Below the pieces are notes generated by a model. That model saw only the letters and a program-made list of their open reading frames with translations, searched no databases and was not told where the DNA came from. A program made the position numbers and the translations under genes. This document shows positions 9,184 through 61,426 of a stretch of DNA of 64,000 bases, piece after piece. Source of the DNA: Haliangiales bacterium (GTDB taxonomy: Bacteria > Myxococcota_A > Polyangia > Haliangiales > SHYZ01); assembly GCA_035259575.1 (NCBI GenBank), contig DATFWE010000042.1, forward strand, positions 4,882 through 68,881, read 5' to 3'. Each line of letters starts with the position of its first letter. Position 1 is the stretch's first letter.

Positions 9184-11492
9184 AGACGACTCCGCCGCGA
9201 CAGCGATGCAACCGTCGCGCCGATCACGGTGAGCGAGCTCGCGGGCATGAGCACGGCGCACAAAAGGGGCGACATCAGGCCGGCGTAGGCCAGCGCGACG
9301 GCACCCACGTTGTAGGTGACGGCGATGGCAAGATTGGTGCGCACCACGCGGGCGAGGCGGCGCGCCGCATCCAGCGCGAGCCGCACCGGGCGCAGGCCGG
9401 GCGACGTGAACCAGAAATCGGAGCGCGCGGGCATGAACGGCCGGTCGATGGCGGGCGTGCCCGAACAGGTCGCCTGGTCGGCGGCGAGGCTGTCGTTGAT
9501 GCCGTCGCCGATGAACAGGACGTCGCCGCGGTCGTTCGCGCGGAGCCACGCCGCCTTGGCCGACGGGGTCTGTCCGCCGAGCGCGCGCGCCGCCGGAATG
9601 CCCAGCGCCCGCGCCTGGTCGGCCACGCGCGCGGGCGAGTCGCCCGACAGGATCCACACCTCGTAGCGGCCGGCGGCGAGCCGCCGCGCCTCGTCGGCGG
9701 CGTCGGGGCGGAGCTCCTCCACGGTCTCGAGCGGGATGGGCGGCGCGCCGGCCGCGGAGAACCCGGCGGCGTCGAGCCGGTAGACGCGGCCGCCGCGAGT
9801 CAGCTCGACGCCGCGCCCGGGCTCCTCGACGACCACGAGGCCGTCGACGAAGCGGTGCGCCCCGGCGTCCTCGAGCGCGCGTCGCACCGCCGCGGCCCTG
9901 GGGTGGGAGCTACGCGCGGCGAGGTTGTAGAGCGCCTCGCGCGCGTCGCCGTCGAGGGCGGCGAGGGCCGTCGGGTCGGCGAGGCGCAGGGACCCCGTCG
10001 TGAGCGTGCCCGTCTTGTCGAACACCACCCGCCGCACCGCGGCGGCGCGGTCGAGGAACCCGCCGGCGCGCACGTACAGGCCGTGGCGGCGCAGCCCCGC
10101 CTGGGCGAGCTCGTAGGCGAGGGGCGTGGCGATCCCCAGCGCGCACGGGCAGGTGACGATGAGCACCGCGGCGGTGACCGCGAGCGCGCGGCCGGCGTCC
10201 CCGGTCGCGAACGCCCATCCGCCGAACGCCCCCGCGGCGAGCGCGAGCACCGCGATGACGTACCAGCGGGCGAGGCGGCGCCAGAACGCCGTCGCCCGCG
10301 GCAGCTCGGTCTCGCGCCGCGTCGACTTCTCGAGGAGGGGCAGGAGCGTGGACGCGGCGAACGGGCCGGCGGCGCGGGCGGCCGCCGCGTGCGCGGACGC
10401 GTTGAACGCGCCCGCCGGGATGGTGTCTCCGCGGGCGAACGCGCGCGGGGCGCTCTCTCCGGTGATCCAGTCGAGCGAGAACGTGGCGGCCTCGGCGTCG
10501 AGCGCGGCGTCGACGGGGCAGAGGTCGCCCGGCGCGAGGAGTAGGCGATCGCCCTCGCGGAGCTCGGCGCAGCGCACGATCGCCACGCGGTCGCGGTCCA
10601 CGCGGCGGACGAGGAGCTCATCCGCGCCGTCGGCGGCGAGGAGCTGGCGGCGGTTCTTCTCGAGGACGCGCTCCTGCAGGAACCGGCCGAGGAGCATGAG
10701 GGCGATGAAGACGGTGAGCGTGTCGAAGTAGGTGGCGTCGCCGCGATGGGCGACGAACGACAGCGTGGACGAAGCGAACGCGAGGAGGATCCCCAAGGCG
10801 ATGGGGAGGTCGAGGTGGAAGAGCCCGCGGCGCAGCGCCTCCCACGCCGAGCGGAAGAAGACCGGGCCGCCCACCAGCACGGCCGCGGCGGCGAGCGCGA
10901 AGTTGAGGTCCCGGAACATGCGGTAGATCGGCCCGGCGCGGAGCCCGGCGTAGGTCGCGATGCCGAAAATCATCGCGTTCATGGCCAGGGCGACGCACAC
11001 GCCCAGGCGCCAGAGGAGGTCGCGCGAGCCGGTCGGCGCGTCGGGCTTGCGCGCCGGGCCGAGGCGATAGCCGAACCGCTCGATGTCCGTCACCAGCTCG
11101 CCGAGGGGAAACTCCGGCGCGACGGTGAGCGACAGCGTGCCGAGCGCCGGGTTCACGACGATGTCGAGCGCCCCGCGGTCTCGCCGGCGCGCGAACATCT
11201 GCTCGATCAGCCACACGCACGCGGCGCAGCGGATGCCCTGGACGTCGAGGCTGAGGCGCTGGACCGGCCCGCCGGCGGCGAGGCGCTCCGCCGCGAGCGC
11301 CACCCACTTGTGGTCGGCCGGCGCCTCGGCGGCGGTCGCCGGCACGCCCACCGCGCCGCCGAGCTCGTAGTAGCGGTCGAGACCCTCGCTGCGGATGAGG
11401 TGGTACACCGTCTCGCACCCGCGGCAGCAGAAGGATCCGGCGCTGGGCGTGCCGCAGTGCAGGCAGGCGACCGCGCAGGACGACGAAATCAT
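9171..11492 (-). CDS. ccoI: P1B-type Cu-ATPase CcoI/FixI
   Basis: N-terminal CLHCG..FCCRGC, CAAC metal domain, CPC, DKTGTLT and GDGINDS. Start placed at ATG 11492, downstream of a sigma54-like element. Confidence 0.93.
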   Translation of the reverse strand: MISSSCAVACLHCGTPSAGSFCCRGCETVYHLIRSEGLDRYYELGGAVGVPATAAEAPADHKWVALAAERLAAGGPVQRLSLDVQGIRCAACVWLIEQMFARRRDRGALDIVVNPALGTLSLTVAPEFPLGELVTDIERFGYRLGPARKPDAPTGSRDLLWRLGVCVALAMNAMIFGIATYAGLRAGPIYRMFRDLNFALAAAAVLVGGPVFFRSAWEALRRGLFHLDLPIALGILLAFASSTLSFVAHRGDATYFDTLTVFIALMLLGRFLQERVLEKNRRQLLAADGADELLVRRVDRDRVAIVRCAELREGDRLLLAPGDLCPVDAALDAEAATFSLDWITGESAPRAFARGDTIPAGAFNASAHAAAARAAGPFAASTLLPLLEKSTRRETELPRATAFWRRLARWYVIAVLALAAGAFGGWAFATGDAGRALAVTAAVLIVTCPCALGIATPLAYELAQAGLRRHGLYVRAGGFLDRAAAVRRVVFDKTGTLTTGSLRLADPTALAALDGDAREALYNLAARSSHPRAAAVRRALEDAGAHRFVDGLVVVEEPGRGVELTRGGRVYRLDAAGFSAAGAPPIPLETVEELRPDAADEARRLAAGRYEVWILSGDSPARVADQARALGIPAARALGGQTPSAKAAWLRANDRGDVLFIGDGINDSLAADQATCSGTPAIDRPFMPARSDFWFTSPGLRPVRLALDAARRLARVVRTNLAIAVTYNVGAVALAYAGLMSPLLCAVLMPASSLTVIGATVASLSRRSRLWRS

Positions 11493-11505
11493 CACGCGGG
11501 CATCT

Positions 11506-11522
11506 AGCAAGGAGGGTGCCGA
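11506..11522 (-). promoter_or_regulatory. Putative sigma54 -24/-12 promoter of the cco operon
   Basis: Minus strand TCGGCACCCTCCTTGCT (GG-N10-GC, close to TGGCAC-N5-TTGC). Confidence 0.7.
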
Positions 11523-11550
11523 CCGCCGCGCGCCCGGACCGGGGACGCGG

Positions 11551-11565
11551 GCGCAGTTTCTGCGC
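11551..11565. promoter_or_regulatory. Palindromic activator-type site
   Basis: GCGCAG-TTT-CTGCGC; a half site (GGAAG-AAT-CTGCG) lies 31 bp downstream at 11583-11595. Confidence 0.6.
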
Positions 11566-11614
11566 CCCCATCCCCGAGCCGGGGAAGAATCTGCGCGCTT
11601 TCCGACGACCTTCC

Positions 11615-11630
11615 GAGCACGCGACTTGCA
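11615..11630 (+). promoter_or_regulatory. Putative sigma54 promoter (non-canonical AG at -24)
   Basis: GAGCACGCGACTTGCA; ATG 11644 lies 15 nt after the -12 C. Confidence 0.5.
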
Positions 11631-11643
11631 GTCTGATCACGTC

Positions 11644-12498: not shown

Positions 12499-12517
12499 AG
12501 ACGATCGTGAGGCGGCG

Positions 12518-14179: not shown

Positions 14180-14185
14180 ACGGGG

Positions 14186-14237
14186 CGCAATGCTTGCGGG
14201 GGCGCAAACGCGCCAGGCGGGAAACGCAATCTTTGCG
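14186..14237. promoter_or_regulatory. Pair of perfect CGCAA-N3-TTGCG palindromes (putative enhancer sites)
   Basis: 14186-14198 CGCAA-TGC-TTGCG and 14225-14237 CGCAA-TCT-TTGCG, upstream of a sigma54 element. Confidence 0.72.
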
Positions 14238-14256
14238 CGGGAATCGCGCTCACTGC

Positions 14257-14273
14257 TTGGCACGGAGTTCGCT
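14257..14273 (+). promoter_or_regulatory. Putative sigma54 promoter of the cyt c-Rieske-cyt b operon
   Basis: TTGGCACGGAGTTCGCT, GG-N10-GC with TGGCACG. Confidence 0.75.
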
Positions 14274-14304
14274 GGTCTTCGATGGCCATAAGGAGGTCGC
14301 AACC

Positions 14305-14652
14305 ATGAAGCGGCTGAGCGCCATGTTCTTCCTCTCGATGTCTCTCCTCGGTCCCGCCATCGCCTCGGCGGACGACGCCGCGACGAATCGCGTGTTCCGC
14401 GCCAAGTGCGCGTCCTGCCACGGCGAGGACGGCAAGGGACACACCAAGGAAGGCGAGAAGATGAAGGTAGGCGACATGACGTCGGCCGCGTTCCAGAAGG
14501 AGCTCACCGACGAGAAGATCAAGCAGACGATCGAAAACGGCCTGTCCCGCGAGAAGAACGGCGTCAAGCAGGAGATGAAGCCGCTCAAGGACAAGCTCAC
14601 GCCCGAGCAGATCGACGCGCTGGTCAAATACGTCCGCGGGCTGGCCAAGTAG
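14305..14652 (+). CDS. Secreted mono-heme class I cytochrome c
   Basis: AGGAGG SD, signal peptide, CASCH and distal Met (QEMKP). Confidence 0.92.
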   Translation: MKRLSAMFFLSMSLLGPAIASADDAATNRVFRAKCASCHGEDGKGHTKEGEKMKVGDMTSAAFQKELTDEKIKQTIENGLSREKNGVKQEMKPLKDKLTPEQIDALVKYVRGLAK

Positions 14653-14665
14653 CCGAGGCGCGCCC

Positions 14666-18197: not shown

Positions 18198-18213
18198 CGG
18201 CACGCTGGCTGCA
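18198..18213 (+). promoter_or_regulatory. Putative sigma54 promoter
   Basis: CGGCACGCTGGCTGCA; ATG 18227 lies 15 nt after the -12 C. Confidence 0.65.
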
Positions 18214-18226: not shown

Positions 18227-19120
18227 ATGTCGACGCACGATCGGATCGCAACGAGTATCGCGCTCGCGTTCGGGTCCGCGGTGGCGTGGGTGGCGTGCGG
18301 GGGCGGTTCTTCGACGACCTCGCCGCCGGACGCCGCTCCGCCCGACGCGCGCCCGCCGGCGCCGGACGCCGCCCCACCCGACGCCAGCCCTCCGGATGCC
18401 CCGCCGCCCCCGACGCTGACGCTGTCGCTCGATCCCGCGCTCGACACCGACCCCGACACCGTGAAGGCGACGGCGATCACGGCGGCCGACTTGCTCGACA
18501 CGTCCGGCACGGCGGTCGCGCACGCGACTGTTGCGAACGACCAGGCGGTGTTCGCGATCGGCGCTCTCGCGCCAGGTGAGTTCTTCATCAAGGTGAACGG
18601 GGACGCCGACGATCTCGTGCCGACGCGCATCGACAACCCTGCGGCGAGCGTCGTCCAGCGAGTGGGACAGAAGCTGAGGGCAAGCTTGATCGGGCCGGAG
18701 AACAGCCCGGTGTACCGCGTGAACACCTATTCTGCCGGCCAGGGAGAGAGCCCGATCGTGAGATTCTCCGACGGCACGACGATCGCCGGCGAGCAGCCGT
18801 ACATCTTCATCACGCTCGCCCTGCCAAAGGTTGACATCAAGGTCCTGGGGACGGGGGCTCGCGTGAGCACCCTTTTGCCGGGCTCGCAGCTTCACCCGAG
18901 CACGCTCGTGCCCTTCGACGCCTGGATCCTGAACACCAGCGGCCAGCCGCACCACGGGGATGCCTACAACGCGGCGCCCTCATCGTGCAGCGGGTGCCAC
19001 ACGAAGCTCGACATGAAGCCGGCGAGCTATGCCGACATCACCGTCGCGAACGGCTGGTGCTTCCATTGCCACAATGGAACGGCGGGAGACGGCAGCGGCT
19101 TCGTCGATCCTACCCAGTAG
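18227..19120 (+). CDS. Di-heme c-type cytochrome lipoprotein of unknown function
   Basis: Lipobox-like WVAC, Pro/Asp-rich PDAAPP repeats, C-terminal CSGCH and CFHCH. Confidence 0.78.
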   Translation: MSTHDRIATSIALAFGSAVAWVACGGGSSTTSPPDAAPPDARPPAPDAAPPDASPPDAPPPPTLTLSLDPALDTDPDTVKATAITAADLLDTSGTAVAHATVANDQAVFAIGALAPGEFFIKVNGDADDLVPTRIDNPAASVVQRVGQKLRASLIGPENSPVYRVNTYSAGQGESPIVRFSDGTTIAGEQPYIFITLALPKVDIKVLGTGARVSTLLPGSQLHPSTLVPFDAWILNTSGQPHHGDAYNAAPSSCSGCHTKLDMKPASYADITVANGWCFHCHNGTAGDGSGFVDPTQ

Positions 19121-27179: not shown

Positions 27180-27196
27180 AGCAACCTGCTTGCCAA
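27180..27196 (-). promoter_or_regulatory. Putative sigma54 promoter of the multiheme operon
   Basis: Minus strand TTGGCAAGCAGGTTGCT. Confidence 0.72.
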
Positions 27197-29147: not shown

Positions 29148-29163
29148 TGCAAGCCCGAGGCCA
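29148..29163 (-). promoter_or_regulatory. Putative sigma54 promoter of hemN
   Basis: Minus strand TGGCCTCGGGCTTGCA; ATG 29135 lies 14 nt after the -12 C. Confidence 0.7.
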
Positions 29164-29193
29164 CGCCTTTCCTCGACTCGGGGCGCCGGCGGG

Positions 29194-29237
29194 CGCACAG
29201 CTTGCGCGACGGCCGCGCAAAACCCGCAAAAGCTGCG
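29194..29237. promoter_or_regulatory. Pair of CGCA-N5-TGCG palindromic sites
   Basis: CGCAC-AGC-TTGCG (29194) and CGCAA-AAG-CTGCG (29225), 31 bp apart. Confidence 0.62.
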
Positions 29238-29245
29238 CGGTCCCG

Positions 29246-31108: not shown

Positions 31109-33571
31109 TCAGGTCGTCGCGTGCGCCCGCTCCTCGGCCGCCTCGCGATGGGCGAGCGGACGGTACACGATGCGGCACGCGACGCGGCCCTTGTCCCCGT
31201 CGGTGACGTTTGCCGGGATGTACAGGAACGCCGACTCGGTCTCGCACTCGAGGACGCGCGGGCCCCGCTCGACCATGCCGTCGAGCAGCACCCGGCCGGA
31301 GATGTCCTCGGTGTGGTGGGACTCGTGGTCCTGGTACAGGGCGGAGGTGGCGACGAGCTCCACGCTCTCGATCTGCACCCAGGTGTAGCGCCGGCCGAAC
31401 AGCACCGCGACGTTCATGCCGGCCTCGCCGATGGGAACGACGAGGGCGAAGAAGCCGTCGTGCGTCGCGTGCGCGTCGCGGGCGGCGACGGTGGACTCGG
31501 CGCCGCGCGCCAGCACGAACGGCACGTTCTCGCGCCGCACGGTGAAGTCGGCGTGGGCGAAGCTCAACCCATAGCGCTGCTGGGCGAAGTAGGTCACCGC
31601 CATCTCGAGCCCGGCGTAGCGCAGCTCGATGGGGTAGTTCATGCGGCGCCCGGAGTGGCCGTGCTCCATGAAGAACAGTCCGCGCCGGCGCAGGCCGGTC
31701 AGGCCCTCCTCGCGGTCGAACAGGCGGAAGGAGTCGGTGGTGGCCAGGTTCATGTCGAGACGGAAGCCCTCGAGGTAGGCCATCTCATGGCGCGTGGGGA
31801 AGTACGACAGGCGGCCCAGCTGCCCCAGCGCGGCGCGGCGCAGCGACGCGAGATCGGGGCGCTTGCCCGTCGCGGCGAAGAAGCTCTCGGCATCGGCGGC
31901 GAACGCGCGGCACGCCTCCTGCACCGGCTTCACCCGCTCGATCTGGTCGCGCGCGATCACCTGGGGCGCGCCGATCGGCCTCCCCTCCTCGTCGTAGTCG
32001 ACGACGCTGTCCATGTCGGCGGTGCAGATGTCCTCGAGCAGCGCCACCTGATCCACCAGCGACAGCACCCCGCGCTCGTCGCAGCACGACGGGTCGAGGA
32101 GGCCTTTGCGCGAGCGCTCCCACCCGGGCGTGCCCACGACCATGAGGTAGAGCCCGGCGACGTCGACCCCCCACTCCTCGCGAAGCACCGGCTCGAGCAG
32201 GCGCTGCGCCGTGCACTCGTAGCCGAGATCGACGAAGACGAGCGTATCGCCGGGCGCGACGCCGGCGGTGCGCTCGACGTAGCGGCGCAGGCGCGCGCGG
32301 TAGGCGCGCGAGCGCTCGAAGATCGCCGCCATCGTGTCGGGACGGCGGATGCGCCGCATGAACTCGTCGAACGGGCGCGACTTCCTCTTGGCGGCGGCGA
32401 CGATGTCCCTGCCCTGGTCGCCGGCGAGGCCGAGCTGCCGGGCGAGGTCGTCGAGGCGCTGCGTCCCGATGAAGCGCGCCAGGTAGCGCTCGACGTCCTC
32501 GGGCCCGCGGAACGACGCGGCGTAGGCGGCGAAGCGGCTGATGCCCACCTCGTGGCCGACGGGCTCGCCGGCGATCGCGCTGGCCACCTGGCGCGGCAGG
32601 TAGGCGTCGCGCATGAGGAACAGCGGCTTCACGCGCTTGCCGGCGGCGCGCAGGGCGGCGAGCTCGTCGACGATGAACCGCCCGAACGCATACATGATCG
32701 GCCCGGCCGCGGCGTAGCCGAGGAGCTGGTCTCCGTCGGCGGGGGCGCGCCGCTGGGCGAGGACGCCGTGGAACGGGCTGGGCACGCCGGCGGTGTGGCG
32801 CACGCTCGGGTCGAGGAGCGCCATGGCGGTCCCCTGCAGGCGCAGGAGCTCGCACACGTCGGCATCGTTCTGCACGAAGCGAAGCGCGCGCATGCCGGCG
32901 GCGAGCGGCGCCGTCAGGTCGGCGGTCGGGTTGTCGCCGATGTGGAGAACCGCGTCGGGGCGGACGTTGAGCTCGGCGAGGACGTGGCGGAACAGGCCGT
33001 CCGCCTTGCCCTCGCGGAAGCGGCTGGAGCAGAACACGCGCGCGATCGCGGCGTAGGCGTCCTCCGGCAGCACGGCGGCGAGGAGCGCGCGCAGCTCGGT
33101 CTCGTCGAGGTAGGTGTCGCTGACGATCGCGACGCGCAGGCCCTTGCGCCGGGCGGCCCGGATGAGCTCCACCGTCGGGGGAAACGCGAAGCAGGCGTCC
33201 ATCTCGGCGGCGAGCTCGGCGCGGGCGAGCTCGGCGATCTCGGCCTCGCCGAGGTCGGGGAACGCGGCGCGGTAGATCTCGGGGAGCCGCACCTCTGACC
33301 GGCCCTTCTGCAGCCGCCGGAGCGAGCGCGCCAGCGACTCCGCCTGCGCGCGCAGCCGGGCGGTGAGCCCGCGGGCGCGAAACGGCGGCGCGTGCTGGAG
33401 GTCGTAGAAGACGTCGGCGGGGGTGGCCGTCCTGCGGAACAGCAGCGTGTCGAAGCAATCGAGGGACAGAACCTTGATGCGCCCGGCGTGCGCGGCCAGG
33501 GCATCGATGAGCTCGAACGCGCGGACCTCAGGGCGGGCGGCGTCCATGTGCGCGGGGGCGGTCGAGGGCAT
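31109..33571 (-). CDS. HAD phosphatase domain plus PRTase-like domain; probable dual-domain ribofuranosyltransferase-like protein
   Basis: SLDCFDTLLFR, VSDTYL and HIGDNPTAD (HAD); GYAAAGP, LFLMRDA, ISR and FVDLGYECTAQ (glycan phosphoribosyltransferase-like). Confidence 0.6.
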   Translation of the reverse strand: MPSTAPAHMDAARPEVRAFELIDALAAHAGRIKVLSLDCFDTLLFRRTATPADVFYDLQHAPPFRARGLTARLRAQAESLARSLRRLQKGRSEVRLPEIYRAAFPDLGEAEIAELARAELAAEMDACFAFPPTVELIRAARRKGLRVAIVSDTYLDETELRALLAAVLPEDAYAAIARVFCSSRFREGKADGLFRHVLAELNVRPDAVLHIGDNPTADLTAPLAAGMRALRFVQNDADVCELLRLQGTAMALLDPSVRHTAGVPSPFHGVLAQRRAPADGDQLLGYAAAGPIMYAFGRFIVDELAALRAAGKRVKPLFLMRDAYLPRQVASAIAGEPVGHEVGISRFAAYAASFRGPEDVERYLARFIGTQRLDDLARQLGLAGDQGRDIVAAAKRKSRPFDEFMRRIRRPDTMAAIFERSRAYRARLRRYVERTAGVAPGDTLVFVDLGYECTAQRLLEPVLREEWGVDVAGLYLMVVGTPGWERSRKGLLDPSCCDERGVLSLVDQVALLEDICTADMDSVVDYDEEGRPIGAPQVIARDQIERVKPVQEACRAFAADAESFFAATGKRPDLASLRRAALGQLGRLSYFPTRHEMAYLEGFRLDMNLATTDSFRLFDREEGLTGLRRRGLFFMEHGHSGRRMNYPIELRYAGLEMAVTYFAQQRYGLSFAHADFTVRRENVPFVLARGAESTVAARDAHATHDGFFALVVPIGEAGMNVAVLFGRRYTWVQIESVELVATSALYQDHESHHTEDISGRVLLDGMVERGPRVLECETESAFLYIPANVTDGDKGRVACRIVYRPLAHREAAEERAHATT

Positions 33572-33585: not shown

Positions 33586-33601
33586 AGCAAGCCCCATGCC
33601 G
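33586..33601 (-). promoter_or_regulatory. Putative sigma54 promoter
   Basis: Minus strand CGGCATGGGGCTTGCT; ATG 33571 lies 16 nt after the -12 C. Confidence 0.62.
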
Positions 33602-33679
33602 CGCTGTTCGGCAACGGTTTCAGATAGTTACATATGTGCCCGCGTCAACGTCCCCCGCGCCGACGGGAGGATTGACGGC

Positions 33680-36442
33680 TCACTCCTCGCGCAGGGCCAC
33701 CATCGGGTCCACGCGGGACGCGCGGCGCGCCGGGATGACGCTGGCGGCGATCGCGACCCCGGCCAGGAGCGCGATCGCGCAGAGCGCCGTGGTGGGGTCG
33801 TGGGGGGCGAGGCCGTACAGCATCGCCTTGGCAGCCTGCGCGCCGGCGAGCGCCAGGACGAGGCCGGCGACGAGACCGTAGAGGAGCAGGCGGGCGGCCT
33901 CCGTGACGATCATGCGCGTGACCCTGCCGGCGTCGGCGCCGAGCGCCATGCGGATCCCGATCTCGTGCACCCGCCGCGCGACGCTGTAGGACACCACGCC
34001 GTACAGCCCGATGGTGGCGAGGAGCGCGGCGAGCAGGCCGAAGAACCCGGCCAGCGTCGCCATGAGGCGCTCCTGCCGCACGGACTCGCCGACCATCCGC
34101 TCGAGGAGGTCGAAGTCCATGACGAGCCTGGGCTCGAAGTCGCCCACCGTCTGCTTCAGCGCCGTCACCACCGCCCCCGGCGGCAGCCCGGTGCGGACGA
34201 CCAGGTTGACGTAGGCCTGCGGCGTCTTGTCCTGCGTGCGCGCCCGGAACACCGTCGGCGGCGAATCCTCGCGGAGCGAGTAATACTTGCTCTCGCGCAC
34301 GACGCCGACGATCTCGTACACCCGCTCCGGCTCGCCGCTCGGTTCTGCCTCGACGCGGAGCTGCCGTCCGATCGGGTTCTTCCCGTCGAACAGCGTGCGC
34401 ACGACCTCGGCGTTGACGATGGCCACCTGCGGCGACTCCGGCGTGTCGCGCGCATCGAAGTCGCGTCCGCCGACGAACGGCGTCTCCATCGTCTTGAAGT
34501 AGTCGGCGCTGACGAGATTGAACCTGCCGGTCACCGCCTTCTTCGGGTCGCCTCCGTCGGGCCAGATGTTGTCGTGCCAGCCGCTGCCCGAGATAGGCAC
34601 GATGCTGGCCGTGGCGGCGGACGCCACGCCCGGCGTGCTCCGCACCCGCTCCAGGAGGTCGCGCACGAACGCCAGCCGGCGCTCCTGCGGCAGGTCGAGC
34701 GGACGGGCGTCGACGGTGAGCACGACGACCCCTTCGTCGCGGAAGCCGGCATCGACGGTGACGAGGTTGCGCAGGCTGCGCACGAACAGGAGCGCGCCGA
34801 ACAGGAGCACGAACGACAGCGCGACCTGCACCGCGACGAGCACGCGCCGCAGGCCGAAGCGCTCGCGGCCGGCGGTGGTCGAGCGGCCGGCCTTGAGCAC
34901 GAGGCCCACGTCGGTGCGGGTGGCGCGCAGGGCCGGCGCGAGCCCGAACAGCACGCACGTCAGGGCGGCGAGCCCGGCGGTGAAGCCGAGGACGCGCCAG
35001 TCGAGCGCCAGGTTGACGAACAGCTCCTCCCCGCGCGTGCTGAGGAACGCGACGAGCACGTCGCTGAGGAGGCTGGCGAGGAACAGGCCGAGCGCGGCGC
35101 CGAGGACGGCCAGGAGCAGGCTCTCGGCCATGAGCTGGCGGATGAGCCGGCCGCGCGAGGCGCCGAGGGCGAGGCGGATCGAGATCTCGCGCTCGCGCGC
35201 GCTGGCGCGGGCGAGCAGCAGGTTGGCCAGGTTCGCGCACGCGATGAGGAGCACGAGCCCGGCGATGGCGAGGAGGAAATACAGCGCCCCGGAGTATTCC
35301 TCGCGCAGGGAGGAGATGCCGTGGGCGGCGGAAAATGCGCCCAGCTTGTACTCCTTGTACTTCACGACGTTCTGGGGCGGATAGCCGGGCGGGACCGTCT
35401 CGTCGAGGAGCCGCTTGCCCAGCGTCTCGATGTAGGCGTCCGCCCGCTCGATCGTCCACCCCGCCTTGAGGCGGCCGACCGCCGACAGCCACCACCCGTG
35501 CGGCACGTCGAGGAGGTTGCGTTCGCCGTAGAGCGTGACCTCCATGCACAGCGGGACCGCCACGTCGAACGAGCGGCCGACCTCGAGGCCGAAGAACCCA
35601 GGCGGGGCGACGCCGATGATCGTGACGGAGTGGCCGTCGAGGGTGAGCCGGCGTCCGATCGCCGACGGATCGCCGCCGAACTGGCGCCGCCAGAACCCAT
35701 CGCCGAGGACCGCGCCCGGATCGGTGCAGCCGCGCCGATCATCGGCGGCGGCGAACGTGCGGCCGAGGGCGGGCTTGACGCGGAGCACGTCGAAGTAGTC
35801 GCCGCTCACCAGCATCGCGCGCGCCCAGCGGGCCTCGCCGGCCGGGTTGAGGTTCACCGTGCGGTCGCCGAACGCGAGCATGCCCGCGAACGCCTCCTGC
35901 TCGTCGCGCAGGTGCGTCCACAGGTTGTAGGTGAGATCGGGGTGCGACCCGTTGAACCTGCCGCTGCCCCAGTGGCGGTCGCGGATGCGGACGATGGTCA
36001 GCTCGTCGGCGCGGTCGACTGGAAGCTTGCGCAGGTGGAGTGTGTCGAGGAGCTGGAAGATGGCGGTGTTGGCGCCGATGCCGAGGGCCAGCGACAGGAG
36101 GGTCACCGCGGTGAACCCCGGGTTCTTGGCCAGCGCCCGCACGGCGTAGCGCAGGTCGTGGAAAAGGTCCCCCGCGACGCCGCGGGGCGCGCCGCCGGGG
36201 ACGATCGGGTCGCGCGCCGCGGGGCGCAAGACCCCGCGCAGGCGCTGCGACAGGACCTCGTTGTCGTCGAGCTCGGCGAGGACCGCGGCGTCGGCCTCGG
36301 CGGGGCTCCGGCCCCGGGCCACGAGCTCGGCGTGCCGGTCCTCGAGGTGCTGGACGATCTCCTCGACGATCTCGTTCTCGCGCGTCGGCTCGAGCTGCGC
36401 GCCCGCCAGCCGCCGCAGGACCTCGGCTCGCCACTCAGGCAT
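33680..36442 (-). CDS. Duplicated ABC permease (MacB/FtsX-like, ADOP-type)
   Basis: EIVQHLEDR prefix, DLRYAVRALAKNPGF, LALGIGANTAIF, LIACANLANLL, EISIRLALGA and EIGIRMALGA. Confidence 0.92.
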   Translation of the reverse strand: MPEWRAEVLRRLAGAQLEPTRENEIVEEIVQHLEDRHAELVARGRSPAEADAAVLAELDDNEVLSQRLRGVLRPAARDPIVPGGAPRGVAGDLFHDLRYAVRALAKNPGFTAVTLLSLALGIGANTAIFQLLDTLHLRKLPVDRADELTIVRIRDRHWGSGRFNGSHPDLTYNLWTHLRDEQEAFAGMLAFGDRTVNLNPAGEARWARAMLVSGDYFDVLRVKPALGRTFAAADDRRGCTDPGAVLGDGFWRRQFGGDPSAIGRRLTLDGHSVTIIGVAPPGFFGLEVGRSFDVAVPLCMEVTLYGERNLLDVPHGWWLSAVGRLKAGWTIERADAYIETLGKRLLDETVPPGYPPQNVVKYKEYKLGAFSAAHGISSLREEYSGALYFLLAIAGLVLLIACANLANLLLARASAREREISIRLALGASRGRLIRQLMAESLLLAVLGAALGLFLASLLSDVLVAFLSTRGEELFVNLALDWRVLGFTAGLAALTCVLFGLAPALRATRTDVGLVLKAGRSTTAGRERFGLRRVLVAVQVALSFVLLFGALLFVRSLRNLVTVDAGFRDEGVVVLTVDARPLDLPQERRLAFVRDLLERVRSTPGVASAATASIVPISGSGWHDNIWPDGGDPKKAVTGRFNLVSADYFKTMETPFVGGRDFDARDTPESPQVAIVNAEVVRTLFDGKNPIGRQLRVEAEPSGEPERVYEIVGVVRESKYYSLREDSPPTVFRARTQDKTPQAYVNLVVRTGLPPGAVVTALKQTVGDFEPRLVMDFDLLERMVGESVRQERLMATLAGFFGLLAALLATIGLYGVVSYSVARRVHEIGIRMALGADAGRVTRMIVTEAARLLLYGLVAGLVLALAGAQAAKAMLYGLAPHDPTTALCAIALLAGVAIAASVIPARRASRVDPMVALREE

Positions 36443-36767
36443 GTTCGCCTCCCGTGATGCGGTTGATGGCGGCGACGAACGCCTCCCACGAGCTGCGCTG
36501 CTGCGCGAGCACCTTCCGGCCGCTCGGCGTGATGCGGTAGTACCGCCGCCGTCGCTGGCCGGCCTTCTCCACCCAGCGGCCCTGGAGCCAGCCGCGCTTC
36601 TCCAGGCGGTAGAGGAGAGGATACAGCGACGCCACGTTGAAGCGCACCACACCGTCGGAGCGGGAGTCGATCAGCTTGCTGATCTCGTAGCCGTGACGGG
36701 GGCGTACTTCGAGGAGCGAGAGGATCAGCAGCTCGGCGCTGCCCTTCTTGAGCTCTTTGTCAGCCAC
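36435..36767 (-). CDS. PadR-family transcriptional regulator
   Basis: KKGSAELLILSLL..RHGYEI..SLYPLLYRLE..RRRYYRIT. Confidence 0.93.
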   Translation of the reverse strand: MADKELKKGSAELLILSLLEVRPRHGYEISKLIDSRSDGVVRFNVASLYPLLYRLEKRGWLQGRWVEKAGQRRRRYYRITPSGRKVLAQQRSSWEAFVAAINRITGGEHA

Positions 36768-37314: not shown

Positions 37315-37353
37315 TGCAACGCGCGTACCGCGCCGACTGGCCCGAACCTTGCG
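37315..37353. promoter_or_regulatory. Back-to-back sigma54-like promoters
   Basis: Minus CGGTACGCGCGTTGCA (37330-37315) and plus TGGCCCGAACCTTGCG (37338-37353). Confidence 0.62.
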
Positions 37354-37366: not shown

Positions 37367-37783
37367 ATGAACCCCAGCGAAGCGCGTGCGCACATCCTGC
37401 GAGAGCACGACCGGCTGCGCGAGCTGCTCGCGGCCGCCGAGACCGCCGCGGCGCGTCTCCTCGCGGGAGTGGACGATGCGGACCGCTTCCGCGGGATCGT
37501 CGCCGAGCTGCGCACCGCCCTGGCGGAGCACAATGCGCACGAGGAGGCGCTGATCGAGCCGATGCTGGCGGGCGTCGACGCCGTGGCGCCCCTCCGCATC
37601 CGGCGGATGGTCGAGGAGCACGCCGCGGAGCACGCCGCGCTGCGGGCGCACCTCGCCGGCCCGGAGGCGGAGATCGCGCACCGGATGTCGGACCTCGCCG
37701 AGGACCTCCTCGCCCACATGGAAGCGGAAGAGCGCACGTTCCTCCACCCCCGCGTCCTCGGCGACGACACGCCCCGGGGCTGA
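37367..37783 (+). CDS. Hemerythrin-domain protein
   Basis: REHDRL, AEHNAHEE, EEHAAEH and LAHMEAEE iron-ligand pattern. Confidence 0.87.
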   Translation: MNPSEARAHILREHDRLRELLAAAETAAARLLAGVDDADRFRGIVAELRTALAEHNAHEEALIEPMLAGVDAVAPLRIRRMVEEHAAEHAALRAHLAGPEAEIAHRMSDLAEDLLAHMEAEERTFLHPRVLGDDTPRG

Positions 37784-37786
37784 GCG

Positions 37787-37868
37787 CGCAGCGTTTGCGC
37801 CCCGGCGGCCCCACATCGCCGAATATCGCAAGGTCTGCGCCATCCCCGATCTGGGCAGGGGGTCTGCC
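37787..37868 (+). promoter_or_regulatory. Palindrome pair plus weak sigma54-like element
   Basis: CGCAG-CGT-TTGCG (37787), CGCAA-GGT-CTGCG (37827) and GGGCAGGGGGTCTGCC (37853-37868). Confidence 0.55.
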
Positions 37869-37886
37869 TTGGGCGACACTGGGACG

Positions 37887-40139
37887 GTGATCGCCGCCGC
37901 CACGCTCGACGAGCTGGTGCGCCTCCGTGGGGCCGAGACCCCCGCCGCCGATGTGCTGCGCTTCGAGGGCCAAGCCCTCCGCGCCGCGGAGCTCGACGAG
38001 CGCTGCCGGCGCACCGCCCGCGCCCTCGCCGATGCCGGCATCGGGCCGGGCGATCGGGTACTCCTCTACCTGCCCAATGGAATCGACGTCATGGTGGCCT
38101 GGTTGGGGATCGTGCGGCGCGGCGCGATCGTGGTCCCGGCGCATGCGACGCTGCGCGAGCGCGATCTGGGGCACCTGCTCGCCGTCTCCGGGGCGAAGCT
38201 CGCGCTCACCGACGCGGCCGGCGCGCCGGCGATCGCCCGGGCCGGCGCGCCCGGCGACGTGTGGATCGACCTCGGCCCGGCGCGGACGGCCCCCGCCCAC
38301 GGCGGCGAGACGCCCGCCGCGCCCGACGACGTGGTCGCGCTCCAGTACACGTCGGGCACGACCGGCCTGCCCAAGGGCTGCATGCTCACGCACGCCTACT
38401 GGCTCGCGCTCGTCGGGGCGATGGCGGCCTATGCGCCGTTCGGACCGGACGACGTGGCGCTGTCCGCGCAGCCGGCCAGCTACATGGACCCGATGTGGAA
38501 TCTGTTCCTCGGTCTCGCGACGGGCATGCCTCTGGCGCTGCTGCCGCGCTTCTCCGCGACGACGTTCTGGCGCAGCGCCGTCGCCACGCGCGCCACGTTC
38601 TTCTACTGCCTCGGCACGATGCCCCTCGTCCTGGCCAGGCAGCCGATCGACCCCGCGATCGAGCGCGGGCACCGACTGCGGTTCGTCCTGTGCTCGGGGA
38701 TCCCGGCGGCGCGGCACGCGGAGCTGGAGGCGCGCTACGGCTGTCCCTGGCGCGAGGCCTACGGGACGACCGAGCTGGGGGCGGTGCTGCTCTCGCCCCT
38801 CGCCGCCGTCGACGACGTGGGGACCGGGGCCCTCGGCGAGCCGTGCGCGGGCAAGGAGATCCGCGTCGTGCGCGACGACGGCGCCGCGGCCGGGCCCGGC
38901 GACTCCGGCGAGCTGCAGGTGCGCGGCCCGGCCCTCATGCGCGGGTACTTCGACGACGCGGAGGCCACCGCCGCGTGGTGCCCCGACGGCTGGGCGCGCA
39001 CCGGCGATGAGGTTGCCCTCGACGCGCGCGGGCGGCCGCGCCACGTCGGGCGGCGGCGCGACCTCATCCGGCGCGGCGGCCAGAACATCGCCGCGGCCGA
39101 GGTCGAAGCGGTCCTGGCCGAGCATCCGGCGGTGCGGCAGGTCGCCTGCGTCCCCGTCCCCGACGAGATCCGCGGGGAGGAGGTCAAGGCCTACGTGGTG
39201 CCGGCGGCGCCCGGCGCGGTGTCGCCCGAGGCGCTGGTGGAGCACGTGCGCGAGCGGCTGGCGCCGTTCAAGGCGCCGCGGTACGTCGAGATCGTCGCGA
39301 CGCTGCCGATGACGCCGTCGGAGCGCGTGGCCAAGCGCCTCCTCGCGCGCGCGGTCGGCCCGCGGACCTACGACGCGGACGAGCCCGTCGCCATGCGCGA
39401 GCTCACCCGCCTGGTCGCGCGCGCCGATTGGGTCGGCCTCGACGAGATGCTCGAGCTCGAGACCGACGCGGTGCTGGCGTGCCTCGCCGACCCCCAGCTC
39501 GAGCGGCGCGTGCGGGCGCGCGTGGGCGATCGCGCCCCCGACCCCTCGCCCGGCCCCGACGTGCGCGTCGCGCGCGCCGGCCGGCTCGCGACCATCACGC
39601 TGGACCGCCCCCACGTGGCCAACGCCCTGCGCCACGCGAGCCTGCGCGAGCTCCTCGCGATCCTCGACGCGCTGGCCGCCGACGACTCGGTGGACGCGGC
39701 GGTCGTCACCGGCGCCGGCCGCGCCTTCTCCGCCGGGGAGGACCTGCGCGAGCTCGTCGCCGGCCTGCCCGGCTCGGCCGCCGCGGCGCTGCCGCTGGCG
39801 CAGGACCTCACCCGCCGCATCGTGGCGCACCCGAAGCGCATCGTCGCCGCGGTGAATGGGCCCGCGGTGGGGCTGGGCGCCGAGCTCGCCCTCGCCTGCC
39901 ACGCGCTGGTCGCGGCGCGCGGCGCGTTCCTCAGCTTCCCCGAGGCGGAGATCGGGCTCCTGCCCACGAACGGGGCTTTCCACTTCGTGCCGCGACGGGC
40001 CGGCCCGGCGCTGGCGCTCGCGTGGTTCCGCGGCGGTGCCCCCATCCCCGTCGAGGAAGCGGCGGCCGCCGGCCTGGTGGCGCGGGTCGTTCCGCCCCAC
40101 GAGCTCGCCGCGGTCGCGGCCGCCGTGGCGCTCGGCTGA
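37887..40139 (+). CDS. CaiC-like acyl-CoA ligase fused to an enoyl-CoA hydratase/isomerase domain
   Basis: YTSGTTGLPKG, YGTTE, RTGD and RGGQNI (ligase); ITLDRP..NAL, FSAGEDL, AVNGPAVGLGAEL and FPEAEIGL (crotonase). Track start is TTG 37869. Confidence 0.88.
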   Translation: MIAAATLDELVRLRGAETPAADVLRFEGQALRAAELDERCRRTARALADAGIGPGDRVLLYLPNGIDVMVAWLGIVRRGAIVVPAHATLRERDLGHLLAVSGAKLALTDAAGAPAIARAGAPGDVWIDLGPARTAPAHGGETPAAPDDVVALQYTSGTTGLPKGCMLTHAYWLALVGAMAAYAPFGPDDVALSAQPASYMDPMWNLFLGLATGMPLALLPRFSATTFWRSAVATRATFFYCLGTMPLVLARQPIDPAIERGHRLRFVLCSGIPAARHAELEARYGCPWREAYGTTELGAVLLSPLAAVDDVGTGALGEPCAGKEIRVVRDDGAAAGPGDSGELQVRGPALMRGYFDDAEATAAWCPDGWARTGDEVALDARGRPRHVGRRRDLIRRGGQNIAAAEVEAVLAEHPAVRQVACVPVPDEIRGEEVKAYVVPAAPGAVSPEALVEHVRERLAPFKAPRYVEIVATLPMTPSERVAKRLLARAVGPRTYDADEPVAMRELTRLVARADWVGLDEMLELETDAVLACLADPQLERRVRARVGDRAPDPSPGPDVRVARAGRLATITLDRPHVANALRHASLRELLAILDALAADDSVDAAVVTGAGRAFSAGEDLRELVAGLPGSAAAALPLAQDLTRRIVAHPKRIVAAVNGPAVGLGAELALACHALVAARGAFLSFPEAEIGLLPTNGAFHFVPRRAGPALALAWFRGGAPIPVEEAAAAGLVARVVPPHELAAVAAAVALG

Positions 40140-54098: not shown

Positions 54099-54104
54099 GG
54101 CTTT

Positions 54105-55004: not shown

Positions 55005-55013
55005 CCGGCACGT

Positions 55014-58094: not shown

Positions 58095-58170
58095 GGGCTG
58101 GTCCTCCGGCTTTTCGGGAGAATCTAGCCGACTCCGACAGGAGCGGTCGAGCGACGGCCGCACACCACGG

Positions 58171-58320
58171 TCAGTGGAGGAGATCGAAATCGAAGCTCGT
58201 TTCCGGGGCATTCGACAGCAGGAACTCCAACTTGGTCGTCTTGGCGGAAGCGGTACGCCCCCCGAACGCCGCAGCGGCCAGCACGATCGCAGCGATAGCT
58301 ATCCTCTGGGATGAGCTCAT
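58171..58320 (-). CDS. 49-aa small ORF with a signal peptide (absent from the track)
   Basis: AAAGGAGAGG SD; MSSSQRIAIAAIVLAAAAFGGRTASA-KTTKLEFLLSNAPETSFDFDLLH. Confidence 0.5.
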   Translation of the reverse strand: MSSSQRIAIAAIVLAAAAFGGRTASAKTTKLEFLLSNAPETSFDFDLLH

Positions 58321-58404
58321 GTGCCTCTCCTTTCGAGGAAAACTCAGGATGGGCGTTTCTGGACGATGGCTAGCACACTTCCCTCGAAGAGGGGGAGGCG
58401 CGAG

Positions 58405-61398
58405 TCATTGGGTCCACGCGCCGAGATCGATGACGTATCGATCGCACCAATCGGCGACGGTGCAGACGTGCTGCGCGTCCGGCGGCCGAGAGGGGTCGAA
58501 ATACCGCCAGCCCGAAGGTCCCAAGATGCGTGCGGCGCACTTGGGCCCCCGGCACTCGTGTCGGAGGGTCATGGGGACGCCGGGGAACGTGGGGGGCTGC
58601 AGCCCCGGCTGGTAGACGTGCATGTAGGGGACGCCGTCGAATCCCCAGTGATCGTCTCCGTAGCAACAGTCGCCGGCGGTGTGCGTCGACGCGTCGGGGA
58701 ACATATCCGAGCAGGCGGTCGTCGTTTGCGGCGGCGGCTGCATCGTTGCGCCGCTCTGCTCTCCGGACTGCGTGGCCGTGTGGGTGAACATGCACCCCGG
58801 CTGGTTGGTGAAGACGTAGTACTCCGTCTCGTGCTGGTGCTGGTGCACGTGGGTCGCCGGTTGTGAATTCACCATGTCGCGCTCGGCGTGGAACACCACC
58901 CCGCCGGGCTTGAACGGCGGTTCGAAGTAGGCCACGACTGCCGTGTAGTGGGTGTCGCCGCCGGAGTCGAGGTACTGGGTGTCGAAGTCGTAATCGTAGC
59001 GCGTGCAGCCGTCCGGCGGCGGGCCCGCGCAGCTCGCGACGCAGTCGTTGGTGTAGAGCCGAACGTTGGCGTCCGCGTTGCGATCGAGGTTGCCGATCGT
59101 CACCTTCACCTCGAGCGCCGGTTGCGGCGTAGGACAGCTCGGGGCCCAACGCACGACGATGTTGTTGCGGAGCGGCGTCGTCAGGACGACGTCGTCGCTT
59201 CCGTCGAGTCTCAGGTTGGTGAGGGGTGCGAGCGTCGTCGGCTGCGGATCCCCGGCCACGGCGTCGCCCTCGATGGCCACGATGGTCACGCTCGGAACGG
59301 CGTACGCGGCCTTGACGCGCTCGATGTCCGACTTCGACACGTGCAGGTCGGCGCTGGCGAGCAGGCCCGGGAGATCGCTCGCCGACCACGGCTGCGGCGG
59401 GCGGGACACGAACTGTCCGGCGAGAAGGTCGAGGCTGTCGGCTTGACGATCCAGAAAGGTCACCTTGTGCGCGTTGTCCGCGAACAAGCGCAACCGCGAC
59501 GTGAAGGCGCCGCGCGCGTACACCTCGTGGACGATATCGACGCCGAAATTGCCGGCGACGTCGAGCTCGACTTCGGAGCGGCCGTCTTGATTGAGATCGA
59601 GGCGCGGATCGTGAAGGTCGTCGCCGAGGACGGTCATTGTCCCCTGCATCGTCATCATGTCGCGCAGCCGGCGAAAGTCGCGCATGTCGACCACGCCGTC
59701 GCCCTCGGCGTCGGACGGCGGCGAGCCGTCGCGCGTGAACCCGTCGGCGGTGCCGTCGTCAAAATCGGTCATCCATTCGAGAATGGCGGGCGTGCGGGGG
59801 CGAACGACGTCGAGGCCCGCGACGGCGAACAGGAGGTTGAGCCGGGCGCTCGTGGTCGAGCCGCCGCCGTCCTGCGCTGCGGCGTAGGGCCGGGCGGTGA
59901 GCAGCGTGCGGAGCTCGGCGTTGGTGAGGGTCGGCTCGATGGCGAGCAGGAACGCGGCGGCGCCGGCGACGAACGGCGCCGCGAACGACGTGCCGTGCGC
60001 CAGGGACATACCGTCGCTCGAGTCGGGATCGAGGACCGTGATTTGGTCCCCCGGCGCGAAGACGCCGCCGCCGTCGACGTTGCTGGACGCCGCGCGCACC
60101 GCCGGATCGGTGAGTCTCGCGGCTCCCGGGGTGAGGGCCTCCACGACGATGATGTCGTCGGCGACCCCCAAGGTGGGATCCTGCGCGGCCCACGCGAGGT
60201 CGGAGTGCAACGCCGACGGGAAATTCCCGAGGCCTTTCGGCGGGCAACTCGGCTGTCCGGCTCCGCCGCACTTGCCGCGCGATCGACAGAAACTTTCGCC
60301 TTCGAGCAACATCGGCCCGGAATCGTTCCCCGCCGAGTGCACGAAGAGGATCGGACCGTCGAGCTGGGCGGCCGCGACGATCCGCGCGATCAAAACCGCG
60401 CCGTCCGCCATCAGGGCTTGCATGGTCATCGGGTCGCACCGCCGGCCGTCCGGGACGCGCTGGCTCGGGTCGATGCGCGGATCACAGCGCTCCCACACGA
60501 CGCCGCCCATGCCATCGGGGTAGCTGGAGCAGGACGAGGAGATGGTGAAGCCCAGCGACAGGTTGACGACGCGCGGCCGCCGGACGCCGTTCAGAAGCGC
60601 CTGCAGCGCGCCGAGCTCGTTCGATTGGTACAGGTTTGGGAAACGCAGGTCGACGCCCTCGGCCACCAAGGTTACGAAGGGCGCGACGCCCTCGAGGAGC
60701 TTCTTGTTGAAAAAGTTGGCGCCGATGATGCCCGCGACGGCGGTGCCATGGGGGTCGGTCCCCCCGGGCGCCGTTTCGAGGATGCCCTCGAGGTCGGGGC
60801 TCATGAGCATCGGGGCATCCACGATACCGACCACGGGCGGCGGCCGACCCACGAGAGCGTCGGCGATCCGCCGGTTGAGATTCCACGCGGCGGGAGCGTC
60901 GATGTTGTTGAAGGCCCACTGCGTGCCGTCGAACCAGCGGTCGGGCGGTGCATCGCTCGGCGGCAGGCGCGTCTGGGCGATGGAAAGGTCCGGAGCGATG
61001 ACCGCCACGGCGGCGGCGCTGCGCAAAGTCATGTAGGCCGCGTCGACGACCTCCACGGTGGAGGCCTCGCCGCAATCGAGCAGCGCGACGCCCGCGCGGG
61101 CGAACATCCCGGCGACGTGACAACCCGACGACCCGAGGGCGGCGAGAAACGCGTCGGCGCTCGCCCCCGACGCTTTTGCCGTAAGTAGGAACCGCGGCGA
61201 AGTGTCTATTCCGAACAGCGGGTTGAAAGCCGGCGCGACGTCGGCGACGGCGAAGGGCTGCTCGACGAGGCCGGGCGGGGCGTCCGGGACCGTCGTGGAC
61301 GCATCCGCCGCCGGACGCGCATCCGCACTGTCCGGAGTGCTCTGCCCGTCGCCCGCGCAGCCCGCCGCGAGCAGGAGGACGAGGATGCGCCGCCGCAC
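58405..61398 (-). CDS. S8 (subtilase) serine peptidase lipoprotein with C-terminal Ca-binding-like loops and an unknown domain
   Basis: VVGIVD, HGTAVAGII, SAGND and GTSFAAPFVAG; GTG 61398 gives MRRRILVLLLAAG-C; DAEGDGVVDMRD and DLNQDG loops. Confidence 0.85.
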   Translation of the reverse strand: MRRRILVLLLAAGCAGDGQSTPDSADARPAADASTTVPDAPPGLVEQPFAVADVAPAFNPLFGIDTSPRFLLTAKASGASADAFLAALGSSGCHVAGMFARAGVALLDCGEASTVEVVDAAYMTLRSAAAVAVIAPDLSIAQTRLPPSDAPPDRWFDGTQWAFNNIDAPAAWNLNRRIADALVGRPPPVVGIVDAPMLMSPDLEGILETAPGGTDPHGTAVAGIIGANFFNKKLLEGVAPFVTLVAEGVDLRFPNLYQSNELGALQALLNGVRRPRVVNLSLGFTISSSCSSYPDGMGGVVWERCDPRIDPSQRVPDGRRCDPMTMQALMADGAVLIARIVAAAQLDGPILFVHSAGNDSGPMLLEGESFCRSRGKCGGAGQPSCPPKGLGNFPSALHSDLAWAAQDPTLGVADDIIVVEALTPGAARLTDPAVRAASSNVDGGGVFAPGDQITVLDPDSSDGMSLAHGTSFAAPFVAGAAAFLLAIEPTLTNAELRTLLTARPYAAAQDGGGSTTSARLNLLFAVAGLDVVRPRTPAILEWMTDFDDGTADGFTRDGSPPSDAEGDGVVDMRDFRRLRDMMTMQGTMTVLGDDLHDPRLDLNQDGRSEVELDVAGNFGVDIVHEVYARGAFTSRLRLFADNAHKVTFLDRQADSLDLLAGQFVSRPPQPWSASDLPGLLASADLHVSKSDIERVKAAYAVPSVTIVAIEGDAVAGDPQPTTLAPLTNLRLDGSDDVVLTTPLRNNIVVRWAPSCPTPQPALEVKVTIGNLDRNADANVRLYTNDCVASCAGPPPDGCTRYDYDFDTQYLDSGGDTHYTAVVAYFEPPFKPGGVVFHAERDMVNSQPATHVHQHQHETEYYVFTNQPGCMFTHTATQSGEQSGATMQPPPQTTTACSDMFPDASTHTAGDCCYGDDHWGFDGVPYMHVYQPGLQPPTFPGVPMTLRHECRGPKCAARILGPSGWRYFDPSRPPDAQHVCTVADWCDRYVIDLGAWTQ

Positions 61399-61410
61399 AT
61401 GGGCTTGGCG

Positions 61411-61426
61411 TGCATCGCGCATGCCC
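61411..61426 (-). promoter_or_regulatory. Possible sigma54 promoter
   Basis: Minus GGGCATGCGCGATGCA; GTG 61398 lies 14 nt after the -12 C. Confidence 0.4.

Follow-up and report, generated by a model that had tools for sequence, protein, structure and literature searches.

The present analysis concerns a window of 64,000 nucleotides (nt) from the genome of a Haliangiales bacterium (assembly GCA_035259575.1, contig DATFWE010000042.1, positions 4,882-68,881), in which elements resembling sigma-54 (RpoN) promoters stand directly in front of the start codons of seven genes. The source assembly has 6.78 Mb in 363 contigs with 71.7% G+C, and the DNA runs that contain the window are soil metagenomes, whereas a search for RNA runs containing it found none; we take the source to be an uncultured soil bacterium of the Haliangiales (Myxococcota, Polyangia). 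In our study each element was scored by its matches out of 12 to the sigma-54 consensus TGGCACG-N4-TTGCW, and all the spacing figures are given as d, the distance from the C of the -12 element to the first base of the start codon. The ccoI gene, encoding a P-type ATPase (Pfam E1-E2 ATPase), has the element cGGCACCCTCCTTGCt at 11506..11521 on the minus strand (C 11507, ATG 11492, d=15, 10/12), and the CBS-USP gene divergent from it (Pfam CBS and Usp) has a -24/-12-like element GAGCACGCGACTTGCA at 11615..11630 on the plus strand (C 11629, ATG 11644, d=15). The gene starting at 18227, whose product carries a lipoprotein-like signal at its N-terminus, follows cGGCACGCTGGCTGCa at 18198..18213 on the plus strand (d=15, 10/12). 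In case of the hemN-like radical SAM gene (Pfam radical SAM), the element TGGCCTCGGGCTTGCA / TGGCCTCGGGCTTGCa lies at 29148..29163 on the minus strand (C 29149, ATG 29135, d=14, 9/12), and for a gene encoding an 820-aa HAD-domain protein (Pfam HAD) the element cGGCATGGGGCTTGCT / cGGCATGGGGCTTGCt lies at 33586..33601 on the same strand (C 33587, ATG 33571, d=16, 10/12). The hemerythrin gene (Pfam hemerythrin) is preceded by TGGCCCGAACCTTGCg at 37338..37353 on the plus strand (C 37352, ATG 37367, d=15, 10/12), and the S8 peptidase gene (Pfam S8 peptidase), whose product begins VRRRILVLLLL, by the sigma-54-like element gGGCATGCGCGATGCA / gGGCATGCGCGATGCa at 61411..61426 on the minus strand (C 61412, GTG 61398, d=14, 9/12).

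Longer gaps were found at the cytochrome c gene (Pfam cytochrome c), with TGGCACGGAGTTCGCT at 14258..14273 on the plus strand (11/12), ATG 14305, d=33 and the Shine-Dalgarno (SD) sequence AAGGAGG at 14290-14296; at the NapC/NirT gene (Pfam NapC/NirT), with TGGCAAGCAGGTTGCT at 27180..27195 on the minus strand (11/12), ATG 27160 and d=21; and at the USP gene (Pfam Usp), with cGGTACGCGCGTTGCA at 37315..37330 on the minus strand and the candidate starts GTG 37298 (d=18), ATG 37295 (d=21) and, behind GGGAG, ATG 37289 (d=27). A preliminary description of this window had reported the seven distances of 14-16 nt and the longer ones of 33, 27 and 21 nt, with SD sequences at 14305 and USP, and re-measurement reproduced all of them. 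Its statement that all seven genes carry GG-N10-GC holds for six, which match the full consensus at 9/12 or better, and fails for CBS-USP, which has AG at -24. Matches of at least 9/12 occur at 2.2e-4 per position, so that 0.03 would be expected at d=14-16 before the roughly 45 window genes, where six were seen (P~1e-12).

The bare GG-N10-GC pattern occurs 1,701 times on both window strands, about once per 75 nt, and its 188,501 sites genome-wide show codon periodicity only, with no ATG peak behind the motif. The earlier caution that this pattern carries no information was thus well founded, and it was dropped as the motif definition in favour of the full consensus. For the genome-wide histogram of motif-to-start distances that had been proposed as a check, every GG-N10-GC in the genome was scored against the consensus and ATG offsets were counted from the -12 C. 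Up to a score of 8 the ATG distribution is flat, and a peak appears with rising score: at d=14, 15, 16 and 17 the counts are 16, 31, 10 and 6 for score 10 (319 sites) and 16, 11, 5 and 6 for score 11 (68 sites), the latter adding up to 38 of 68 (56%). The 392 sites scoring at least 10 have 33, 42, 15 and 12 ATGs at these offsets, compared with about 4.5 per offset elsewhere, which amounts to 102 versus 18.1 expected from offsets 21-60 (Poisson p=3e-42). With the -24/-12 spacing one base shorter (N3) or longer (N5) no peak is seen, the d=14-17 counts being 11 versus 9.1 and 15 versus 14.8; the signal therefore comes from the sigma-54 geometry and not from base composition.

Non-coding sequence lies upstream of 210 of the sites with 10/12 or more, as judged by a gene model that is a heuristic based on G+C at third codon positions (GC3) and not a trained gene finder. 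The first coding start falls at d=14 in 28 of them, at d=15 in 35, at d=16 in 14 and at d=17 in nine, together 86/210 (41%), and at d=25-34 in 26. This second mode, at d of about 25-35, mostly has GGAGG 7-10 nt before the ATG, and longer gaps are few. The sigma-54 regulon would have two designs, either leaderless or with the shortest leader able to hold an SD sequence, and the 14305 gene (d=33, AAGGAGG) and the USP gene belong to the second. About 100 genes, roughly 40-50% of the intergenic sigma-54 promoters, are served by the abutting layout; most of the remaining promoters have a minimal leader of some 12-20 nt with only a GGAGG, and long 5' untranslated regions (UTRs) are rare. The initial observation is hence confirmed and extends far beyond the seven window genes.

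The abutting codons have the properties of true translation starts. At 113 sites the ATG or GTG at d=14-17 opens an open reading frame (ORF) of at least 50 codons with high GC3. Upstream of these starts the GC content of codon positions 1, 2 and 3 is flat (0.62-0.75), the first 15 nt after the start have 0.56/0.42/0.80, and further in the values are 0.7/0.5/0.9; codon periodicity sets in exactly at the proposed ATG or GTG. Since coding begins at the abutting codon, the transcript leader would be at most a few nt, without room for an SD sequence. In agreement with the SD-less starts described before, the gap between the -12 C and the start is only 13-16 nt and shows no GGAGG enrichment, whereas GGAGG is present in the class with d of about 25-35. 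Among the 96 products of sites with non-coding upstream sequence, 57 have a signal-peptide-like N-terminus, and other N-termini show the prepilin methylation motif, a receiver domain (MAHVLLIDDD...) or the FlgB rod motif, the FlgB start lying at d=14 and the pilin start at d=15. Moreover, eight MacB_PCD/FtsX paralogues (ADOP-like, ~800-820 aa) share an N-terminal motif 5-8 residues from the proposed Met. Each of the eight has its own abutting sigma-54 promoter (contigs C3, C84, C103, C137, C241, C313, C329 and C359); the 990-aa MacB/FtsX gene of the window (33680-36652) instead sits behind a PadR gene.

The assignment to sigma-54, already made in the preliminary description, is supported by the full consensus, by rpoN and its activators and by the target genes. 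A frequency matrix built from the 113 sites returns every consensus position (T, GG, C, A, C, G and TTGC(T/A)). An rpoN gene is present in an open frame on contig C15 (Sigma54_DBD profile match, 219 bits), and its 511-aa product is 54-81% identical to the RpoN regions of Myxococcota, the closest RpoN-encoding records (70-81%) being metagenome-assembled genomes (MAGs) labelled Haliangiales, Kofleriaceae and Myxococcales. For the AAA+ enhancer-binding proteins, tblastn with the activator core found 64 loci, and the GAF[TS]GA motif occurs 47 times. The genes behind abutting sites encode FlgB, FliQ, FliM/N, FliL, a type IV pilin, a PtsN-like EIIA, an extracytoplasmic function (ECF) sigma factor and six NtrC-like activators, and these target families are textbook sigma-54 targets. 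The flagellar genes for FlgB, FliM/N, FliL and FliQ lie on contigs C290 (~8-36 kb) and C5 (~80.9 kb), each behind an abutting promoter, and C290 also has an activator gene with the same layout. Further, A/T-rich positions recur with a period of about 10.5 bp, or one helical turn, at -20/-21, -30 to -33 and -41/-42 (counted from the -12 C); this signal is weaker in the leadered intergenic sigma-54 sites and absent from intragenic matches, which show codon periodicity only. The phased A/T tracts are a shared promoter signature, and they may act by intrinsic bending or as an UP-like element aiding enhancer looping. An example is seen in the window at 33602-33650 on the minus strand, upstream of the HAD gene promoter.

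Leaderless genes of the classical kind were found elsewhere in the same genome. In 1,767 ORFs the start is constrained, the first ATG or GTG lying no more than 36 nt from an in-frame stop. Of these, 271 have a TANNNT that begins at -12 and a further 185 have one that begins at -13 to -15, and SD words form a weak peak at -10/-11. A motif-first count, free of ORF selection, gave TANNNT followed by ATG at +7 in 421 cases versus a background of ~115, with values raised up to +11, and by GTG at +7 in 365 versus ~140. From these counts, roughly 1,200 genes, about a fifth, would show the classical leaderless geometry, with the -10 box of a sigma-70-type promoter 6 nt ahead of the start. Leaderless initiation thus appears routine in the source organism. 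For comparison, the share of Proteobacteria (in the definition of the time) that GeneMarkS-2 assigned to its leaderless group C was 5.6% (PMC6028130).

The position of the first transcribed base was approached through base preferences. The base before the start is C in 31/36 sites at d=14 and 36/45 at d=15 (67/81), compared with 63% among leaderless genes of the TANNNT type and 44-53% in the gene classes that are SD-led or have no signal, and this fits the preference of RNA polymerase for a pyrimidine at -1 and a purine at +1. Where intergenic sigma-54 sites lack an abutting start (96 sites), the pyrimidine-purine step peaks at C+13/14 (0.38 versus ~0.24), with C at 0.47 at C+13. A sigma-54 transcription start site (TSS) cannot lie upstream of the -12 element. 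On the base preferences we lean slightly towards a start at the start codon itself or right beside it (C+14/15, leader of 0-1 nt) rather than the leader of 2-4 nt suggested in the preliminary description. Differential RNA sequencing (dRNA-seq) of C. jejuni placed TSSs 8-13 nt after GGaa-N6-tTGCTt, a range that includes C+14/15 (PMC3847290). The usual definition of leaderless is a 5' UTR of 5 nt or less, as cited in PMC12754779, so both a start on the start codon and leaders of 2-4 nt count as leaderless.

The layout is also seen in relatives, for which the counts come from exact-pattern searches (TGGCAC-N5-TTGC) and refer to the matches listed. In 40 same-order genomes there were 132 distinct sites among the matches listed with an ATG within 7-37 nt, of which 39 have d=14 and 31 have d=15 (70/132); 55 of these 70 have C as the base before the ATG, and the leadered sites show GGAGG. 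Among the matches listed, the share of all TGGCAC-N5-TTGC sites with an ATG at d=14-15 is 6/13 (46%) in this genome, 11/40 (28%) in the same order (3 genomes), 46/339 (14%) in the same class (25 genomes) and 116/2,382 (4.9%) in the rest of the phylum (122 genomes), with 33% in one other family of the phylum. The peak is present in Sandaracinaceae and Polyangiales MAGs and partial in Nannocystis; Pyxidicoccus and Corallococcus have no peak, and in six genomes of Myxococcus size the abutting layout stays at control level without enrichment. In other families the spacer sequence of orthologous promoters drifts but the distance to the start is kept, as in four species of one genus. In case of hemN, a -24/-12-like element was found in 17 of 30 same-order orthologues at d=14 (11), 15 (2), 16 (1), 17 (2) and 12 (1), with unrelated spacers. 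Many of these hemN promoters (loci L093-L108) keep GGCACG at -24 and the 14-nt distance, and a non-consensus -12 recurs in them, (T/G/C)TGA(A/T) instead of TTGC(A/T).

Taken on motif quality, spacing statistics, the coding boundary, the presence of rpoN with activators and conservation in relatives, all of them observed, the elements are probably genuine RpoN promoters abutting start codons, which would give SD-less mRNAs translated by the leaderless route. That the motif should have arisen by chance in GC-rich sequence, or should serve a factor other than RpoN, is hardly credible: bare GG-N10-GC is ubiquitous and 117 matches of at least 10/12 are intragenic, yet the spacing peak (p=3e-42) is lost on a 1-bp change between -24 and -12, all 12 consensus positions are recovered, rpoN and dozens of activators are present in the genome, and the targets are canonical. 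Very improbable, too, is a mis-assignment of the start codons, by which translation would really begin downstream, behind normal leaders lying within the apparent ORFs. Further in-frame ATG or GTG candidates upstream are indeed found in 71/113 ORFs, but the onset of codon periodicity at the proposed codon, the placing of signal peptides, prepilin motifs and receiver domains, all of which begin no more than a few residues from it, the N-termini of the hemN orthologues, which align equally close to it, and the motif shared by the eight ADOP-like paralogues 5-8 residues in all speak for the codons as assigned. Somewhat less remote, though still improbable, is a situation in which the sigma-54 elements work but contribute little, sigma-70 promoters further upstream dominate and give ordinary leaders, and the abutting position has no translational meaning. 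The M. xanthus ahpC gene has both sigma-A and sigma-54 promoters (PMC12754779), and most of our sites have intergenic space upstream. Such dominance would leave the lack of an SD before the abutting starts puzzling, as SD sequences are used elsewhere, including at leadered sigma-54 promoters, and a constant spacing of 14-17 nt, kept in orthologues with divergent spacers, would not persist if it were irrelevant.

Real sigma-54 promoters might also start at the canonical point, ~11-12 nt after the -12 C, with translation tolerating leaders of 2-5 nt; this we consider unlikely, though deserving of more attention than the alternatives above. The GC is at -13/-12 by convention, 25 of the 36 sites with d=14 have a G at C+12 that could be a purine start, and the spread of d over 14-17 suits a fixed start with variable short leaders. 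The d=15 class, however, shows no base conservation at C+12 yet has C at -1 in 36/45, the pyrimidine-purine peak of the leadered sites is at C+13/14 and not C+12, and the sigma-70-type leaderless genes peak sharply with +1 on the start codon, which suggests that ribosomes prefer a 5'-terminal AUG; sigma-54 starts up to ~C+16 were reported in C. jejuni (PMC3847290). Several points weigh against RpoN promoters abutting leaderless starts as we read them. In the CBS-USP element (GAGCAC-N5-TTGCA) the invariant GG is absent, so it is not a literal GG-N10-GC. The textbook start near C+12 would give leaders of 2-5 nt, and mRNAs of this kind are poorly translated in E. coli. With values from 14 to 17, d varies more than in the sigma-70 leaderless peak, and therefore not all the sites can start exactly on the A. 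The 117 intragenic sites (coding in the same phase on both sides) make up ~30% of matches and are probably not promoters, so a minority of the abutting sites may be fortuitous; additional upstream sigma-70 promoters may give longer mRNAs. Myxococcus RNA-seq over a conserved candidate site showed uniform both-strand coverage without 5' ends and was uninformative, and we infer the start nucleotide, the promoter activity and the route of translation from geometry and context.

For the abutting RpoN promoters the following sequence of events is proposed. They would be switched on by enhancer-binding proteins, and the holoenzyme would begin transcription on the first base of the start codon or a few bases from it. 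The resulting mRNA would have no SD sequence, so that the ribosome would have to initiate by the leaderless route, which should be routine here because the -10 box of a sigma-70-type promoter lies 6 nt ahead of the start in about a fifth of the genes. In the window, this layout would serve a low-oxygen regulon comprising ccoI, CBS-USP, hemN, hemerythrin and a di-haem lipoprotein, probably answering to an NmpR-like activator. GCGCA-N5-TGCGC is the experimentally defined site of the NtrC-like NmpR of M. xanthus, which controls an oxygen-utilisation regulon from sigma-54 promoters (PMC11841059). A perfect palindrome of this type, GCGCAGTTTCTGCGC, lies at 11551..11565 (no strand assigned) between the divergent ccoI and CBS-USP genes as a candidate enhancer, and perfect or one-mismatch palindromes stand upstream of the cytochrome c gene (14185-14199, 14224-14238) and of hemN (29193-29207, 29224-29238). 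None with up to one mismatch was found at the 18227, HAD or S8 peptidase genes. A palindrome pair at 37786/37826 (region 37786-37840) also precedes an AMP-binding/enoyl-CoA hydratase gene (37869-40139). The USP (minus strand) and hemerythrin (plus strand) elements are placed back to back with 7 bp between them (37315-37353), and therefore the enhancer of each gene must sit within the other gene; candidate half-palindromes were seen at 37377-37402, inside the hemerythrin ORF. For the HAD-domain protein (31109-33571), a comparison with 40 related genomes found no homologue at E<=1e-20, so that it would be an orphan in its lineage.

A wider picture can be put forward tentatively, with a little less than even confidence. 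In Haliangiales and much of Polyangia, the first base transcribed by the sigma-54 holoenzyme would be exactly the A or G of the start codon (C+14/15). In a regulon of over 200 promoters, about half would then yield 5'-AUG leaderless mRNAs and the remainder mRNAs with a minimal SD leader. The network would then be free of control at the level of the 5' UTR, its on/off gating would be coupled directly to 70S-type initiation, the phased A/T tracts would take the architectural role of IHF, and the layout would have evolved with a lineage-wide leaderless shift.

Sigma-54 promoters work by a separate mechanism, in which basal activity is very low and the closed complex depends on an activator that uses ATP. 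Catalogues of leaderless mRNAs have relied almost wholly on a sigma-70 -10 box beside the ORF: Zheng et al. searched Pribnow-type leaderless genes only, and other promoter types were explicitly left unsearched (PMC3160421). The usual link of leaderless mRNAs to sigma-70-type promoters, mentioned in the preliminary description, agrees with this literature (PMC3160421, PMC6028130). Full-text searches for leaderless together with sigma-54 or RpoN brought up no description of a sigma-54 leaderless class, although the search was not exhaustive and is no proof. The TSS maps of S. meliloti, B. japonicum, Leptospira and Epsilonproteobacteria, the Deinococcus-Thermus -10-box study and the PexR paper treat sigma-54 and leaderless transcripts apart, and a 2025 comparative analysis of sigma-54 regulons mentions neither leaderless transcripts nor promoter-to-start distances. 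These outcomes have practical consequences, as sigma-54 regulon predictors and gene finders that expect a leader will mis-call starts or drop true promoters. They provide a natural system for asking where the sigma-54 holoenzyme picks its start, and whether mRNAs with leaders of 0-4 nt translate efficiently outside Actinobacteria and Deinococcus. Because the share grades from 46% in the genome through 28% in the order and 14% in the class to ~5% elsewhere in the phylum, with none in Myxococcus, the way in which the layout evolved becomes open to study. Compact and tightly gated cassettes for GC-rich hosts can also be envisaged, consisting of an enhancer, a 16-bp promoter, 13 nt and an ATG.

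The abutting sigma-54 layout is a variant of known mechanisms. With canonical sigma-54 promoters (glnAp2, nifH, pilA, flagellar class II/III) it shares -24 TGGCAC and -12 TTGC at invariant spacing, rpoN, many AAA+ activators, upstream dyad enhancers (here candidate sites at some of the window promoters) and the target classes of pilin, flagella, stress and respiration. The known leaders of those promoters are tens of nt long with an SD sequence, whereas here the start lies 14-17 nt after the -12 C in ~40-50% of the intergenic sites. In case of the sigma-54 flagellar promoters of C. jejuni, the TSS range of 8-13 nt after the motif includes C+14/15 (PMC3847290), but the transcripts have leaders and no link to leaderless mRNAs was drawn. 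The NmpR regulon of Myxococcus xanthus has the same paired GCGCA-N5-TGCGC upstream of sigma-54 promoters, before genes for respiration and low oxygen (PMC11841059); on the other hand, the abutting layout is not enriched in Myxococcus, and the palindromes of the window are predicted sites. The sigma-70-type leaderless genes of Actinobacteria and Deinococcus-Thermus (PMC3160421, PMC6028130, PMC12340547) are alike in the fixed short distance from promoter to start, the missing SD and the use of both ATG and GTG, and that class is present in the source genome itself, where TANNNT stands 6 nt before ~1,200 starts. Unlike them, the sigma-54 promoters have no -10 box and form a closed complex which needs ATP-driven remodelling.

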